DNA of 64,000 bases from Eubacteriales bacterium (GCA_045634485.1 JAZRAJ010000091.1:166-64165), one strand, 5' to 3'; positions 1,540-24,028 are shown, counted from the first letter of the stretch. Translations and numbers: made by a program. The notes: generated by a model from the sequence alone, not told the origin.

Positions 1540-1632
1540 ATTAATTTCTCCTTCTTGTTTGATTAAAAATTGATACTTTTTTGATGCTGTACTAAATGGA
1601 AATAGTGTCACGGTATAGCACCGAAAAGAAAA

Positions 1633-1806
1633 GTGAAATATTTTGCTTCGCAAAATGTGAAATCTTCGCTCTGCTCAGGTGAAATCACTCACTTCGTTCG
1701 TGGTGAAATGAAATCCACCCACTCGCCGTAAGGCGAATTTCACTGTCCGAAGGACAATTTCACCGCCGTTTGAGGCGATTTCACCCACCCGATAGGGTGG
1801 ATTTCG
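1633..1806. repeat. phased heptamer array: 4x GTGAAAT then 3x ATTTCAC (+ATTTCG), 20-24 bp period, mostly palindromic spacers
   Basis: GTGAAAT at 1633, 1657, 1679, 1703. ATTTCAC at 1737, 1757, 1778. ATTTCG at 1801. Spacer examples: ATTTTGC-TTC-GCAAAAT, TGTCC-GAA-GGACA, CGCC-GTTTGA-GGCG, CCACCC-GATA-GGGTGG. A paralogous array lies at 16571-16744. Confidence 0.85.
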
Positions 1807-1809
1807 TTG

Positions 1810-12611: not shown

Positions 12612-12956
12612 GCGAGTGGTGGTATATTTGAATTTCACTCATTTTGGAGTGATTTTGAGCCGAAAATTCCCGCCGTATTTTGTTGCAGGAATAAGGGCGA
12701 CGTCGTGTGCGACGTTTCGCCCGAACACATCGGTCGGCAACGCCGACCGTTCAAGGCTTTGTGAGGATTTCTTCTACGACGTCGTGTTGCGCAAATTTTT
12801 GGTGAAACAATGGCGTTTTGCGCAAAAATCTGCGTGAGCTTTAGAGTTGCAAGGCTTTGTTTTGCAGTCGTAAAAGTTTTTGCGTCAAATTTCAAAAAAT
12901 GCTGGATATATCGTGGAATTTGTGGTATTGTATGTGCTAACGAAAGGAGATTTTTT

Positions 12957-14177
12957 ATGGCAACTAAAAAACTATTAACTAACGGAAATGCGTTCAAGCG
13001 GACTGACGGTCGTTGGGGTGGTACGGTCTGGTATATGGATGAGTCGGGCGAGCGAAAACGCAAGAGCTTTTCGGGTACGATCAAGCAAGAGGTAAACAAG
13101 AAAATGACTGCCTATATTGAGGACTTCAACCGTGAAATTGAAAACTCAATCGAGGCGAACAAGACGCTAAAAGATAGTATGACGAATTTGCTTCAAGTCT
13201 TTAAATTCCCGTCGGTCGAACGCACAACATACGATAGGTATGAGTGTACCGCCATCAATCAAATTTATCCGTTGATTGGGGAAAAAACGGTTGGGAATAT
13301 TTCTTCTGCCGATATAAAAAAAGTCCTCAATCATTGGATGAATGAGGGCTACGCATATACAACGGTCAAAAAAGTACACATTATTCTCGGTGAATATTTT
13401 AAATATCTCACTCAACAAGAGATGATAACGAAAAATCCTATGCTTTCAGCGCCGATGATTAAAAAGAGTAATTTCTATGCTATGCAGGACAAGGAAGATT
13501 TGCCGACGAGTGAAACGGTAACGATTTTCACGGCGGAAGAAATAGAAAAATTAAAGGCAGAGGCGAGCAAAACCTATAAGACTGGAAAGAAACTTTACCG
13601 CCAAGCGGGAGCGTATATTTTGATGCTAAACACGGGACTTCGAGCTGGCGAAATGTTGGGCGTTTTGAACGCAGATATTGACCTTGAGAGGCGAGTTCTG
13701 CACTTGCAAAGGGGAGTAAAGGTTGTGAATAAACGCAACGGTGTGGAGCTTTTAGACGGCTCAACCGAGGTAAAGGTCGGAAAGCTGAAAAGTGCGACGA
13801 GCAAACGAGATATTCCGCTTAATGATGTTGCAATTCAAATGATAAAGGAGCTGCGAGCGGAGTTCTACTTTGGCGAGGACAGTCCGCTGATTTGCGACGA
13901 AAACGGAGATTTCACAAAACCCGATGTGTTCAGACGGAGATTTCACCGACTACTTGACGGAGCAGGGATAGAAAGCAAAGGTCTGCACGCACTACGTCAT
14001 ACGTTTGCGACAAACCTTGTAAACGGAGTAAGGCAACCCGACGGAACGGTTAAGGCGCTGACCGTAAGGCAAGTCGCAGATCTGCTCGGACATTCAACAA
14101 CGCAGGTAACCGAGATGTATTATGTGAAAAAGGATAACAAAATGCTGGGTGGGATAACGGATGGGTTTTGTTTGTGA
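12957..14177 (+). CDS. int: tyrosine integrase with N-terminal arm-binding domain (406 aa); copy 2 of 3
   Basis: AAAGGAG RBS. N-terminus FKRTDGRWGGTVWYMDESGERKRKSFSG resembles the Tn916-type arm-binding domain. Catalytic motifs: LRAGE, HALRHTFATN, LLGHS, EMYYV. Same length as copy 3 and closely collinear with it. Confidence 0.93.
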   Translation: MATKKLLTNGNAFKRTDGRWGGTVWYMDESGERKRKSFSGTIKQEVNKKMTAYIEDFNREIENSIEANKTLKDSMTNLLQVFKFPSVERTTYDRYECTAINQIYPLIGEKTVGNISSADIKKVLNHWMNEGYAYTTVKKVHIILGEYFKYLTQQEMITKNPMLSAPMIKKSNFYAMQDKEDLPTSETVTIFTAEEIEKLKAEASKTYKTGKKLYRQAGAYILMLNTGLRAGEMLGVLNADIDLERRVLHLQRGVKVVNKRNGVELLDGSTEVKVGKLKSATSKRDIPLNDVAIQMIKELRAEFYFGEDSPLICDENGDFTKPDVFRRRFHRLLDGAGIESKGLHALRHTFATNLVNGVRQPDGTVKALTVRQVADLLGHSTTQVTEMYYVKKDNKMLGGITDGFCL

Positions 14178-14405
14178 GGGGTTGCAGATTTTGTGAAAAT
14201 ATGATATAATGATCTTGTTTATCAAGAGTGTACGAAATAAAGCGAAAAATAAGAGTTTTGTGGTGTTTTATATAGAAAAAAGCAAAATGCAACCGGTAGT
14301 TGACACATTGAAAGCTGGCGGTTGGTAGTGTGCAAGTGCGATTTGTGCTATAATATAGGCACGATAAAGCGCAGGCTTTACGAATTTATCAAACGAGGTA
14401 TTTTT

Positions 14406-15206
14406 ATGATTTTGGCAGATAAGATTATTAGATTGCGAAAAAAGAATGGTTGGTCACAAGAGGAGCTTGCAGATAAAATGAATGTATCCAGACAAGCTGT
14501 TTCAAAATGGGAAAGTGCGCAAAGCATCCCCGATTTAGAAAAAATATTACAGCTTAGCAAGTTGTTTTGTGTTACAACAGATTATTTGTTAAAGGATGAT
14601 ATTGAGGATGAAGAATTTACGAATGATTCGTATGATGCGTCCGTTAAAAAAATCACCATAGAAGAGGCGAACATTTATCTCAATCAAAGAAAAAAAGCTT
14701 CTTGGCGTATTGCGCTTGCTACATTTTTATGCATTATATCTCCCATAACTCTCATTATTTTGACTATATTATCGGAACAACCTAATTCTATTGTAACGGA
14801 AATAACAGCATGCGTAATTGGATTAATTGTTTTGTTTGCTGTTGTTTTGTGTGCTGTTCCGATTTTTATCTATTGCGGATTTAAAAACCAGCCGTATGAA
14901 TTTCTTGATAAGAATATTCCATTTGAGCTTGAATACGGAGTTAGAGGATTGGTAAACGAAAAGAAGAAAGCTTTAAGAACTGCTTATGTTACTTATAATA
15001 TAATCGCAACCTGTTTATGTATTTTTTCTGTTATTCCACTAATTTTATTATCTTTTACGGAAAACGAGGTGCTTATTGCGGTTGCACTTGCTGTAGCTTT
15101 AGTTATTGTAGGTGTAGGCGTAGGAATGTTTATCGTAGTCGGAACTCAAAACGCAAGTATGCAAAGGCTTCTTAAAGAGGGGCACTTCGCTGAAAATCAG
15201 CGTTAA
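14406..15206 (+). CDS. membrane-anchored XRE-family HTH protein (266 aa)
   Basis: GAGG RBS before ATG 14406. HTH_3 motif (IRLRKKNGWSQEELADKMNVSRQAVSKWESAQSIPDLEKILQLSKLF), followed by about 4 hydrophobic helices. Confidence 0.8.
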   Translation: MILADKIIRLRKKNGWSQEELADKMNVSRQAVSKWESAQSIPDLEKILQLSKLFCVTTDYLLKDDIEDEEFTNDSYDASVKKITIEEANIYLNQRKKASWRIALATFLCIISPITLIILTILSEQPNSIVTEITACVIGLIVLFAVVLCAVPIFIYCGFKNQPYEFLDKNIPFELEYGVRGLVNEKKKALRTAYVTYNIIATCLCIFSVIPLILLSFTENEVLIAVALAVALVIVGVGVGMFIVVGTQNASMQRLLKEGHFAENQR

Positions 15207-15232
15207 AATAAAGATTTTACGGAGATAGTTAT

Positions 15233-15766
15233 ATGAAAAATAAAAATACTGATTTTAAAGAAATTGGTGGTTTTAGCGTTAATGACAAGAAACCACAAAC
15301 GGTATTGTCGGTAATGTTTTTGCTGATAGCAGGTGTTGGCGCAGGTATTGTGTTTCTTACTCAAGCATATGCAAACAATGTCGTTCCCGTTTGGGTAATA
15401 ATATTGTCGGTAATTGCTTTTATCATCATACACGAATTGATACACATTGTATTTATGTCTGCTTTTTCAAAAGGTAAGATTAATGCTAAAATCAAATTTC
15501 CTACGATAGCTGTTGGTTCAGATGCGTATTTTAGTAAAGTGCAATATGTAATTATCGCATTAGCGCCTGTTATTATTTTGGGAATAGCGAGCTTGATTTG
15601 CTTATTATTGCTTCCACACAAGCTATTATTCTCTATATTATTAGTATTAAATTTTGCTACTGCAAGTGGAGATTATATTTTAACTTATTATGCATTAAAG
15701 CAAAATAAGAATACATATTTTGTGGATATGGCAGAAAAAACAATAATTTATTCACAATGCGATTGA
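15233..15766 (+). CDS. polytopic membrane protein with HExxH motif (DUF3267-like putative zincin peptidase)
   Basis: IIHELIHIVF (HELIH) at a helix end. Several TM helices. 177 aa. Confidence 0.65.
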   Translation: MKNKNTDFKEIGGFSVNDKKPQTVLSVMFLLIAGVGAGIVFLTQAYANNVVPVWVIILSVIAFIIIHELIHIVFMSAFSKGKINAKIKFPTIAVGSDAYFSKVQYVIIALAPVIILGIASLICLLLLPHKLLFSILLVLNFATASGDYILTYYALKQNKNTYFVDMAEKTIIYSQCD

Positions 15767-15840
15767 TTATAAATGTATTGAGTAAATTGGATATGATATA
15801 ATAATTGTGTTAGTGAATAGTTTAATGAGGTAGTTTATAC

Positions 15841-16446
15841 ATGAATAAATATGAAAAACGTTCCCAAAAAAACTATGATAAAAAAGCAGAAAAATACGAT
15901 TCTACATTTGACGGAAAATTTACTGTAAAATTAAATGAAACCTTATGTGATATGATTTCGACAAATGATGAAGATATTATAGCTGATGTTGCTTGCGGTA
16001 ACGGACGCTTGTTGTATATGCTCGCTCAAAAAAAATCGTTTAAAGGATATGGCGTTGATCTTTCTGAAAAGATGATTTTAGAAGCGAAAAAGCAAAATCC
16101 TAAAATGGATTTTTTCGTTGCGGGGTGTGAAAATCTTCCGTTTAAAAATCAAGAAATAGATATAATGACGGTTTGTGCAGCATTTCATCATTTTCCGGAT
16201 ATTCAAAAATTTGCCCAAGAAGCAGGTAGAGTGATAAAGAAAAATGGAGAATTATATATCGCAGATGTATATTTGCCCACATTTTTCAGATTGATATGTA
16301 ATCCATTTGTGAAGTTGTCAAAATCCGGTGATGTTAAATTTTATTCGCCAAAAGAAATTGTTGAACTGTTTGAAAATAATGGCTTTGTAAAAAATAGCGT
16401 TGAAATAAAAGGTAAGTTTCAACTTATAAAATTACAAAGAATTTGA
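15841..16446 (+). CDS. class I SAM-dependent methyltransferase (201 aa)
   Basis: Motif I DVACGNGRLL. Post-I GVDLSEKM. Methyltransf_11-like layout. Confidence 0.8.
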   Translation: MNKYEKRSQKNYDKKAEKYDSTFDGKFTVKLNETLCDMISTNDEDIIADVACGNGRLLYMLAQKKSFKGYGVDLSEKMILEAKKQNPKMDFFVAGCENLPFKNQEIDIMTVCAAFHHFPDIQKFAQEAGRVIKKNGELYIADVYLPTFFRLICNPFVKLSKSGDVKFYSPKEIVELFENNGFVKNSVEIKGKFQLIKLQRI

Positions 16447-16570
16447 TTGATTTTATCGTAAATATGCATAAAAGGCTGACGAATTTTTAATCGTCAGCCT
16501 TGAATTTTTGATACTTTTTTGATGCTGTACTGTACGGAAATAGTTTCACGGTATAGCACCGAAAAGAAAA

Positions 16571-16744
16571 GTGAAATATTCGGCTTTGCCGAATGTGAAA
16601 TAATCCACTTCGTGAATTGTGAAATATTTCCCTTCGGTCGATGTGAAATGAAATTTGCCCACATTCGCGTCAGCGAATATTTCACATTTGCGGAGCAAAT
16701 ATTTCACAGCAAAGCTATTTCACTTGCCTAAAGGGCAAATTTCG
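16571..16744. repeat. phased heptamer array, second copy (island B integrase-proximal end)
   Basis: GTGAAAT at 16571, 16595, 16619, 16643 (exact 24-bp period). ATTTCAC at 16679, 16701, 16717. ATTTCG at 16739. Spacer examples: ATTCGGC-TTT-GCCGAAT, AATCCAC-TTC-GTGAATT, ATTTGC-GGA-GCAAAT, AGC-AAA-GCT, TTGCCT-AAA-GGGCAA. Confidence 0.85.
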
Positions 16745-16747
16745 TTG

Positions 16748-16781
16748 AAAAAAGCCCAACGCGATTGCGTTAGGCTTTTTT
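16748..16781. terminator. bidirectional hairpin terminator abutting the tRNA-fragment repeat
   Basis: Same sequence as 1810-1843. Confidence 0.6.
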
Positions 16782-16783
16782 CT

Positions 16784-16828
16784 TGGCAGGGGCGGGAGGA
16801 CTCGAACCCGCGACCCACGGTTTTGGAG
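16784..16828 (-). repeat. 45-bp direct repeat of the tRNA-Trp 3' part; att junction between island B and island A
   Basis: Identical to 1846-1890 and 23953-23997. Confidence 0.95.
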
Positions 16829-22470: not shown

Positions 22471-23691
22471 ATGGCAACTAAAAAACTATTAACTAACGGA
22501 AATGCATTCAAGCGGACTGACGGTCGGTGGGGCGGTACTGTTTGGTTTATGGATGAGTCGGGCGAGCGTAAGCGAAAGAGTTTTTCGGGTACGACCAAGC
22601 AAGAGGTAAACAAGAAAATGACCGCCTATATTGAAGATTTTAACAATGAAATTGAAAACTTAATCGAGGCGAACAAGACGCTCAAAGAGAGTATGACGAA
22701 TTGGTTGCAAGTTTTCAAATTTCCGTCGATCGAGCGCACAACATACGATAGGTATGAGTGTACTGCAATCAATCAAATATACCCATTGATTGGGGAGAAA
22801 ACGGTCGGAAATATTTCTTCTGCCGACATTAAAAAAGTCCTCAATCATTGGATGAATGAGGGCTATGCCTATACAACGGTTAAAAAGGCGCACGTTATTC
22901 TCGGCGAGTATTTTAAATACTTGACTCAACAAGAGCTGATAAATAAAAATCCTATGCTATCCGCGCCGATGATTAAAAAGAGTAATTTTTATGCGATTCA
23001 AGAAAAGGAAGAATTGCCGACAGCCGAAAGCATTACGATTTTTACATCGGAAGAAATAGAAAAATTAAAGGCGGAAGCAGCGAAATCATACGCAACCGGA
23101 AAGAAGCTTTACCGCCAAGCAGGGGCGTATATTCTTATGCTCAACACGGGCTTGCGAGCTGGCGAGATGTTGGGCGTTTTGAACGCAGATATTGACATTG
23201 AGAGGCGAGTTTTACATCTTCAAAGGGGAGTAAAGGTTGTAAACAAACGCAACGGTGTGGAGCTTATTGACGGCTCTGTTGAGGTTAAGGTCGGCAAGCT
23301 AAAAAGTGCGACGAGCAAACGAGATATTCCGCTAAATGATGTCGCAATTCAAATGATAAAGGAGTTGCGAGAGGAGTTTTATTTCGGCGAGGATAGTCCG
23401 CTGATTTGCGACGAGAATGGAAATTACACCAAACCCGACGTGCTCAGACGGAGATTCCACCGACTTCTCGACGGAGCGGGGATAGAGAGTAGGGGTCTGC
23501 ACGCGCTACGCCATACCTTTGCGACCAACCTCGTCAACGGAGTAAGGCAACCTGACGGAACGATTAAGGCTCTGACCGTCAGACAAGTCGCCGACCTGCT
23601 CGGACACTCAACAACGCAGGTGACCGAGATGTATTATGTGAAAAAGGATACAAGTATGCTCACTGGCATCACTAATGACTTCTGCCTATAA
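22471..23691 (+). CDS. int: tyrosine integrase with N-terminal arm-binding domain (406 aa); copy 3 of 3, adjacent to the intact tRNA
   Basis: AAGGAGG RBS. Same motifs as copy 2. The stop codon is 261 bp from the tRNA-Trp 3' end. Confidence 0.93.
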   Translation: MATKKLLTNGNAFKRTDGRWGGTVWFMDESGERKRKSFSGTTKQEVNKKMTAYIEDFNNEIENLIEANKTLKESMTNWLQVFKFPSIERTTYDRYECTAINQIYPLIGEKTVGNISSADIKKVLNHWMNEGYAYTTVKKAHVILGEYFKYLTQQELINKNPMLSAPMIKKSNFYAIQEKEELPTAESITIFTSEEIEKLKAEAAKSYATGKKLYRQAGAYILMLNTGLRAGEMLGVLNADIDIERRVLHLQRGVKVVNKRNGVELIDGSVEVKVGKLKSATSKRDIPLNDVAIQMIKELREEFYFGEDSPLICDENGNYTKPDVLRRRFHRLLDGAGIESRGLHALRHTFATNLVNGVRQPDGTIKALTVRQVADLLGHSTTQVTEMYYVKKDTSMLTGITNDFCL

Positions 23692-23914
23692 TGACTCAAA
23701 AATTGCGTCGGAGTAAGCAAAGAAAAAGGTGACCGCAGAAAACGAAAATCTGCGGTCTCCTTGATGCTCTTTTGACGCTCATGATACTTTTTTGATGCTG
23801 TACTGTACGGAAATAGTGGCACACAATGTGATAAATGGCACGATTGTGCTTTCGTGTTGATTGAGAAAACGGTTGAAAAAGTAGATAGAAAACCGCTTTT
23901 GTACAGAAAAACAC

Positions 23915-23948
23915 AGAAAAAAAGAAAACCGAAGCCTTTCGACTTCGG
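23915..23948 (-). terminator. intrinsic terminator of tRNA-Trp, supplied by island A sequence
   Basis: Minus strand reads CCGAAG-TCGAAAGG-CTTCGG, followed by TTTTCTTTTTTT, starting 4 nt after the CCA end. Confidence 0.7.
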
Positions 23949-23952
23949 TTAT

Positions 23953-24028
23953 TGGCAGGGGCGGGAGGACTCGAACCCGCGACCCACGGTTTTGGAGACC
24001 GGTACTCTACCAACTGAGCTACACCCCT
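23953..24028 (-). tRNA. trnW: tRNA-Trp (anticodon CCA), 76 nt with encoded CCA
   Basis: Reverse complement is AGGGGTGTAGCTCAGTTGGTAGAGTACCGGTCTCCAAAACCGTGGGTCGCGGGTTCGAGTCCTCCCGCCCCTGCCA. Acceptor stem AGGGGTG/CGCCCCT. Anticodon loop CU-CCA-AA. T-loop TTCGAGT. Discriminator G. Confidence 0.93.

Follow-up and report, generated by a model that had tools for sequence, protein, structure and literature searches.

Why should two of three tandem islands in one tRNA gene carry, beside their attachment site, rows of an invariant heptamer and its complement, separated by palindromes that differ between the two copies, when the third island does without them? The question arises from a stretch of 64,000 nucleotides of a Eubacteriales bacterium (GCA_045634485.1, JAZRAJ010000091.1:166-64165; hereafter the window), for which a preliminary description had proposed that hairpin formation and the heptamer are both under selection, in an element that is accessory rather than required for integration. 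An intact tRNA-Trp gene together with three core repeats and three tyrosine integrase genes (~86% DNA identity among them) identifies three islands inserted in tandem in tRNA-Trp, here called A, B and C, whose landmarks are as follows:

23953-24028, minus strand: intact tRNA-Trp gene (CCA anticodon), the integration target
16780-16828, minus strand: att core, a 49-nt repeat including the 3' part of tRNA-Trp; other copies at 1842-1890 and 23949-23997
12810-14177, plus strand: tyrosine integrase of island B (PF00589)
1-810 and 22471-23691: integrase paralogues of island C and island A, respectively (PF00589)
16508-16524, TTGATACTTTTTTGATG, plus strand: 17-nt repeat TTGATRCTTTTTTGATG, likely arm-type integrase site, present in both arms of all three islands
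23798-23952, no strand assigned: island A interval from arm-type repeat to core, with no array and its own terminator

The cargo is of the defence type, with a WYL regulator and three dynamin-like GTPases in island B and AbiE and a large helicase in island A. Eight matches to the 17-nt repeat occur in the window versus 0.93 expected, and seven of them lie at island ends (877, 1570, 1992, 16508, 16930, 23761 and 23781), the one at 877 having 3 mismatches and falling just after the island C integrase; from their sequence these repeats are likely to serve as arm-type integrase sites. The eighth match (5225, minus strand, 3 mismatches, within the cargo of island B) is probably due to chance. The integrase of island A abuts the arm-type repeat directly; extra genes lie between the two in island B (14322-16446), encoding an HTH-membrane protein, a DUF3267 zincin and a methyltransferase, and the corresponding stretch of island C (958-1540) holds a 194-aa ORF without Pfam match.

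In islands B and C an array and a bidirectional terminator are placed between the arm-type repeat and the core, in the integrase-proximal arm. Exact-pattern searches returned the heptamer layout of island B as it had first been described, with GTGAAAT on the plus strand at 16571, 16595, 16619 and 16643 (an exact 24-bp period) and its complement ATTTCAC at 16679, 16701 and 16717; after the last hairpin there is also a degenerate fourth short-arm heptamer, ATTTCGT, at 16739-16745. By the same search the island C copy has its heptamers at 1633, 1657, 1679 and 1703 (plus strand) and at 1737, 1757 and 1778 (minus strand). The window contains 25 heptamers versus 11.4 ± 3.8 in shuffled sequences, none of 100 shuffles reaching 25, and the two arrays account for 14 of them. 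The palindromic spacers reported for island B are all present (ATTCGGC-TTT-GCCGAAT, ATTTGC-GGA-GCAAAT, AGC-AAA-GCT and TTGCCT-AAA-GGGCAA); the spacers of the array at 16571-16745 form flush palindromes and differ, again as reported, from those of the copy at 1633-1808. The parts of the island B array, the adjoining terminator and the second array are:

16571-16649, plus strand: long arm, four GTGAAAT and three flush 17-nt hairpins (pattern search, sub-threshold Gut-1 match)
16578-16594, 16602-16618 and 16626-16642, plus strand: long-arm hairpins
16650-16660, plus strand: segment X, GAAATTTGCCC, directly after the fourth heptamer and complementary to 16733-16743
16663-16678, plus strand: central hairpin ATTCGC-GTCA-GCGAAT, flush with the first ATTTCAC
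16679-16745, minus strand: short arm, the canonical Gut-1 unit, on the tRNA strand (Rfam RF01706 match)
16686-16700, 16708-16716 and 16724-16738, minus strand: short-arm hairpins
16733-16743: X' (GGGCAAATTTC), inside the short arm
16748-16781, no strand assigned: bidirectional intrinsic terminator (A6, GCCCAACGCGATTGCGTTAGGC, T6), between array and tRNA fragment
1633-1808, plus strand: two-armed array of island C, with different hairpin sequences, CCACCC lineage (pattern search and Rfam)

The motif behind these arrays proved to have a name. The Rfam covariance model RF01706 (Gut-1) matches the tRNA-proximal arm of island B (16674-16747, minus strand) at 60.3 bits and that of island C (1732-1809, minus strand) at 72.4 bits, the gathering cut-off for Gut-1 being 50 bits, whereas the mirror arms fall below this cut-off (16569-16654, plus strand, 42.8 bits; 1619-1690, plus strand, 32.8 bits). 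The consensus of RF01706 is 'GUGAAAU, hairpin' repeated exactly three times, a pattern that the window arrays match. They are copies of the catalogued Gut-1 element in its full-length, two-armed form, each being a mirror-image pair of Gut-1; the motif itself was already catalogued, and has therefore been rediscovered here. Weinberg et al. (2010, Genome Biol 11:R31; PMC2864571) described Gut-1, with 43 representatives, as a structured RNA that they rated confident; it was then known solely from human-gut metagenomes, with no function assigned. The arrays share with it three covarying hairpins separated by GUGAAAU and a distribution in gut-associated Clostridia and gut metagenomes; they differ from it in that the published model comprises one arm of 77 nt, listed as a small RNA, whereas the window element comprises two mirror arms over ~175 nt, in that arrays of the window type lie behind tRNA terminators, and in features that would fit DNA better than RNA. 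The Rfam model lacks the mirror arm, the extra closing helix of 11 bp, which covaries and spans a long range, and the combination of c(GNA)g or c(GNNA)g loops with wobble pairs that are few and symmetric.

A comparison of the two window copies bears on how their differences arose. The arrays of islands B and C are 68% identical, whereas the left flank is 91% identical and the block of terminator and att core is identical at 68 of 68 positions (1803-1870 versus 16741-16808), the terminator at 16748-16781 being 100% identical to 1810-1843. An unbroken match over terminator and core despite integrases that are only ~86% identical suggests, as far as sequence can tell, homogenisation or recent recombination at the island junctions. 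Each window array is 81-85% identical to arrays in other genomes and in other tRNA contexts, and since each is thus closer to foreign arrays than to its neighbour, the two did not diverge in place. What had been taken as covariation between the B and C copies thus reflects two old array lineages and not compensatory change in place, with the structure still kept across the lineages.

Whether hairpin formation is under selection was therefore to be judged from a wider set of arrays. Pattern scans of a genome, a metagenome and a viral collection (one each) yielded 250 loci, from which 104 distinct canonical arrays were parsed, 98 of them forming the rows of a stem alignment. The 104 arrays share a conserved asymmetric layout: a long arm of four heptamers ~24-25 bp apart, a centre of 34-39 bp, and a short arm of three heptamers at 16-25 bp plus a degenerate fourth, followed in ~80 of them by an A-run that we read as the A-tract of a terminator. 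Across the 98 rows the stem cells are paired in 83.6% of cases, compared with 58.6% in 500 shuffles, none of which reaches the observed value, and pairing drops to 33-46% when the partners are slid. Double-sided changes were found in 35 of the 40 stem pairs, and the covariation score of 0.545 compares with 0.149 in shuffles (0 of 500 reaching it) and with 0.06-0.12 for slid partners. Given this excess of pairing and the double-sided changes, the hairpin covariation is genuine. All three helices of the long arm (helices 1-3) are paired in 87-89% of cases, with all 21 pairs covarying, and the outermost stem pairs form in 92-99% of rows, showing that the hairpins are flush with the heptamers. The central hairpin enters this alignment as helix 4 and the short-arm hairpins as helices 5-7. 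Meanwhile each hairpin position has 49-71 distinct sequences among the 104 arrays. The proposal of selection on hairpin formation and on the heptamer is borne out by this set, in that all stems covary and the heptamers are invariant; a palindromy no better than chance in larger alignments, which had been named as the outcome that would speak against it, is not what the alignment contains. A further constant is the third long-arm hairpin (16626-16642, and in most relatives), which keeps a TC/TC internal loop (ATCTC..TCGAT), equivalent to tandem G-A on the opposite strand, while the flanking pairs covary.

Beyond the local hairpins, the centre of the array pairs with the outer end of the short arm. 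The 11-nt X:X' helix has at least 10 nt of perfect complementarity from the start of X in 96 of the 104 arrays, in six sequence families, and its positions 6-9 covary, with a paired fraction of 0.80 versus 0.585 in shuffles (shuffle maximum 0.67). Because X' consists of the 3' side of the last hairpin plus ATTTC (16733-16743), the long-range helix and the last hairpin are mutually exclusive, and the former is able to close off the entire short arm. The loops are also constrained. In the short arm c(GNA)g accounts for ~64% of them on the ATTTCAC strand, and the long arm has the complements of GNA and GNNA; taking the ATTTCAC strand of each arm, the great majority of loops belong to the c(GNA)g or the c(GNNA)g type, the latter without the purine rule of GNRA. 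The Rfam strand shows ordinary c(UNC)g triloops. On the ATTTCAC strand the loops match the extra-stable DNA mini-hairpin motifs d(cGNAg) and d(cGNNAg). This loop bias is tied to the polarity of the heptamer and fits a single-stranded form, DNA or RNA alike. Wobble is rare and nearly symmetric (22 G-T versus 37 A-C in ~1760 pairs), unlike in typical structured RNAs. Folded as RNA, both strands are far more stable than shuffles (z-scores -5.4 to -6.1), the minimum-energy fold of the whole strand being an arm-to-arm fold-back. A ladder in which the heptamers of the two arms pair with each other as stacked four-way junctions was considered and rejected: it is energetically favoured, but among 26 long-arm heptamers that deviate from the word not one has a matching change in the short arm, from which it follows that the heptamer is kept as a word and not as a pairing partner.

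The relatives also reveal where such arrays normally reside. An intact tRNA gene adjoins 37 of the 97 assessable arrays, with 14 isotypes represented, its 3' end always facing the short arm at 51-72 nt from the last exact heptamer; ~10 further arrays have beside them a leftover tRNA 3' end such as integrated elements leave behind, and most of the remaining ones follow a terminator-like hairpin. At L020 the order is intact tRNA-Trp, terminator, array, with no integrase within 1.85 kb on that side. Searches with jackhmmer and phmmer among 4395 ORFs of the other 250 loci returned no relative of the window integrases, which matched only their own three copies, and in a Pfam tally of 147 neighbouring ORFs on the long-arm side Phage_integrase occurs twice, one of the two being the window's own. 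With tRNA adjacency common and relatives of the window integrases absent, the array belongs to the ordinary make-up of tRNA 3' flanks in these bacteria; in gut Clostridia it usually sits right behind the intrinsic terminator of a tRNA operon, in the space that separates this terminator from the promoter of the next gene. An Rfam scan of 20 loci with tRNA-less arrays found only Gut-1 and tRNA and no other stable-RNA gene. One subclass of arrays (L012, L021, L075, L109, L110, L134, L147, L170, L173, L226, L240 and L250) has a GC-rich hairpin without T-run after the short arm, for example CCGACTGTCC..GGACAGTCGG, with no tRNA or other Rfam family nearby.

Island A makes the same point from within the window. 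An alignment of the three island ends agrees with the preliminary description that this island has no array, as shared sequence extends up to ~23819 and resumes at the tRNA core, and that the interval between is unrelated, comprising ~130 bp with a terminator of its own. An island-specific att accessory was rejected on these grounds, together with the other loci without integrase. The earlier view that the array is dispensable for integration stands, given its absence from island A and ~100 related arrays with no integrase relative nearby; such arrays occur generally behind tRNA terminators and are no accessory peculiar to islands, and islands B and C merely carry one in their attachment arm without its being part of the integration machinery. 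Because these islands have terminator and array in the att arm, the tRNA regains its usual 3' flank on integration; island A brings only a terminator and does not rebuild that flank. That the arrays are Gut-1, that the tRNA flank is their usual location and that they do not belong to the attachment machinery we hold, taken together, with high confidence.

With regard to transcription, a promoter scan found no sigma-70-like promoter near either window copy, and copy B is bracketed by terminators, that of the methyltransferase gene (16472-16501) and the bidirectional tRNA terminator. In about one third of related flanks the -35 element of a good, outward-pointing promoter starts 7-10 nt past the last heptamer of the long arm; with a terminator on one side and an outward promoter on the other, the array usually fills the terminator-to-promoter gap. 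In bovine-gut metatranscriptome assemblies (Logan contigs from four runs, unstranded, with a depth that reflects many organisms), 16-21 short contigs, which may include DNA, match arrays of many organisms, and some transcription of arrays is therefore possible. At L079 a ribosome-binding site directly follows the last heptamer, placing this array necessarily in a 5' UTR. A role as leader of one gene family was rejected, as genes of many kinds, housekeeping ones among them, lie next to the long arm, and only PF05635 recurs (12 of 147 ORFs).

PF05635, the family of the 23S rRNA intervening-sequence protein and of the Avd protein of diversity-generating retroelements (DGRs), is the top neighbouring family in that tally. 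The gene for this four-helix-bundle (4HB) protein adjoins about one fifth of the arrays: in ~20 of 104 it starts 32-66 bp from the end of the long arm, always reading outward. No such gene lies next to the other ~80%, to which both window copies belong. In the reverse direction, five 4HB proteins led by exact identity to 36 places, and an array lies upstream wherever upstream DNA is present: ~20 of these places have the order tRNA (Pro, Arg or Leu), terminator, array, promoter, 4HB gene, and in the remainder the tRNA is displaced by a mobile element or the upstream DNA is absent from the record. A MazG-like gene often lies downstream of the 4HB gene. As most of the 36 places represent the tRNA-Pro locus of one species, the independent contexts are few, about three (tRNA-Pro, tRNA-Arg and tRNA-Leu). 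Avd is a nucleic-acid-binding pentamer, and the closest solved structure for the 4HB protein is 2RLD, with five chains per entry. PF05635 is a large family with no known function outside DGRs; unlike the setting of Avd, the array loci contain no DGR, and the link between 4HB protein and heptamer is one of gene adjacency. Separately, tandem 7-nt GTGAAAT-like microsatellites without hairpins occur at several loci (L031:686-734, L024:972-1100, L022, L053, L084, L088 and L108). The one at L031, a Chlorobi locus, lies 45 bp upstream of a PF05635 gene, and L024, an Oscillospiraceae locus, has a mirrored pair of such heptamer runs beside a PF05635 gene.

Several loci bear traces of movement. An identical module of ~1.0 kb (terminator, array, promoter, 4HB gene, MazG-like gene) is found at tRNA-Pro in L252:2230-3247 and at tRNA-Arg in L258:2230-3300, in the latter followed by a second terminator (89% identical) and a different array with the heptamer ATGAAAT/ATTTCAT. 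Near-identical array pairs flank inserts of 0.7-2.7 kb in L036 and L072. In L251, L263, L271, L274 and L275, serine-recombinase or phage-like elements are inserted exactly at ..CCA|GAAAAGAAAC.., ~270 bp upstream of the 4HB gene; at these insertions between CCA and terminator, the terminator and array stay with the downstream gene and the junctions lie outside the array. A word similar to the arm-type repeat, TTTTGATAC, follows the array-terminator-TGGC junctions in L072 and L130.

What, then, might the array do behind a tRNA terminator? Our full reading, in which the Gut-1 array is a tRNA-flank element that islands B and C carry with them and that serves as a protein scaffold at the level of DNA, has in our judgement slightly less than an even chance of being correct in all its parts. 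Its mechanistic core, a DNA scaffold showing rows of heptamers to an oligomeric protein for which PF05635 is the candidate, is favoured over a small RNA and is put forward tentatively, as a possibility suggested by the sequence. The array would act as DNA, on extruded or transiently single strands, where the flush mini-hairpins would fold out, each with its c(GNA)g or c(GNNA)g cap, and align the invariant heptamers side by side, in two mirror-image rows of the 7-nt word. An oligomeric protein, the best candidate being the PF05635 Avd-like protein, would read these rows, the 11-bp helix from the centre to the outer end would close the short arm as an alternative to the last hairpin, and the likely outcome would be to mark or insulate the point where a very active tRNA unit gives way to the next promoter. 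The mirror arms, the rare and symmetric wobble, the loop types and the position between terminator and promoter would favour DNA over RNA, the argument from the loops resting on the general thermodynamics of DNA mini-hairpins.

The published classification implies a different product, namely that Gut-1 is a small non-coding or cis-acting RNA on the tRNA strand, made when transcription runs past the tRNA terminator or starts at a promoter that has escaped recognition, with single-stranded GUGAAAU linkers that bind protein or RNA and with the mirror arm giving rise to a convergent RNA or an antisense partner. We consider this rather unlikely, yet there is much to be said for it: the motif was rated confident on covariation by Weinberg et al. 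(2010; PMC2864571), the stems covary strongly across 98 arrays, both strands fold with strongly negative z-scores, and the metatranscriptome contigs and the 5' UTR array of L079 indicate that transcripts may exist. However, those contigs are short and unstranded and may include DNA, no promoter-like site is found near either window copy, and an array that lies behind an intrinsic terminator, and in about one third of flanks directly upstream of the -35 of the next promoter, is poorly placed for an RNA. Moreover, G-U pairs are rare and without strand bias, which is unusual for a structured RNA, the Rfam-strand loops are mostly c(UUC)g triloops and not the stable c(UUCG)g, and the mirror arrangement would put two different words in one transcript. 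Much the same position, with a terminator on one side and the next promoter or a convergent gene on the other, would suit passive punctuation, in which a row of hairpins with AU-rich linkers pauses or terminates polymerase, or offers RNase sites, in either direction and with no dedicated protein, so that transcription leaking out of the tRNA unit and antisense transcription entering it are both stopped in a REP/BIME-like manner. Mirror symmetry would present the same order of modules to a polymerase from either side, and a terminator scan did pick up several hairpins that have ATTTC directly behind them. But pausing hairpins need no invariant 7-nt word, the U-tracts are merely 3 nt long, the covarying 11-bp helix and fixed 4+4 layout exceed what a backstop terminator needs, and the tight link to the PF05635 gene is left unexplained, such that we hold punctuation to be improbable. 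REP/BIME elements of enterobacteria and BOX elements of pneumococci, which have been reported to bind host proteins and attenuate transcription, do resemble the arrays as modular intergenic palindromes found in opposite orientations after genes or terminators; their units, however, keep their sequence and are thought to spread by transposition (RAYT), whereas Gut-1 arrays keep only the 7-nt linkers while the stems covary, and no RAYT-like gene accompanies them. A REP/BIME-type mobile repeat was rejected since the window copies share the heptamers while their stems differ, and so many distinct sequences occupy each hairpin position.

Movement could nonetheless be the point of the structure, if the array were a site of recombination, either an attC-like folded strand or a BIME/MITE-like repeat through which cassettes behind tRNA genes are exchanged. 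Structure is conserved and sequence variable in attC sites, and the module shared by L252 and L258, the near-identical pairs around the inserts in L036 and L072, and window arrays so divergent inside 91-100% identical flanks would all accord with such exchange. This we judge very improbable, because the Pfam tally of 147 ORFs shows no recombinase or transposase consistently nearby, the insertion junctions lie at the boundary between tRNA CCA and terminator and so outside the array, arrays within one genome differ in sequence, unlike the products of recent transposition, and no target-site duplication or terminal inverted repeat was seen. For the integron attC site in particular, which the arrays resemble in that structure is kept over sequence and a folded single strand is a plausible active form, there is an IntI-type integrase with R and L boxes and a cassette array, none of which Gut-1 arrays have; with no integron integrase among the neighbours and the junctions located as above, attC was rejected. 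Lying as it does in islands B and C, with the arm-type repeat (16508-16524) on one side and the core (16780-16828) on the other, the array recalls the accessory sites of lambda-like attP arms, and a module that bends DNA or binds an Xis- or IHF-like protein could tune excision and integration. Such a role is largely refuted, and we give it next to no credence, as island A, with an integrase ~86% identical and the same arm repeats, has no array and ~100 related arrays have no integrase, many of them lying beside housekeeping genes. Also rejected were a parS/NBS half-site, a relaxed DnaA box, a Rex box, Chi, and IS200/IS605 or RAYT sites, the direct-repeat spacing being a misfit and the neighbouring genes lending no support.

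Taken alone, the finding in the window is modest, another copy of a known motif that had rightly been judged dispensable for integration. Gut-1 has been an orphan motif since 2010, and its placement in tRNA flanks, its two-armed form and its link to a 4HB gene make both the motif and PF05635 testable. It is conceivable, though we would not expect it on balance, that Gut-1 arrays are DNA elements and not small RNAs, and that with PF05635 they form an unrecognised system of nucleic acid and protein that marks the 3' boundaries of tRNA operons in gut Clostridia, of which tRNA-targeting mobile elements would need to bring their own copy. The sequence is compatible both with a flank captured by the islands and with a flank that was selected; that some tRNA-targeting islands restore the tRNA 3' end together with the terminator and the Gut-1 flank hints that this flank matters to the host.
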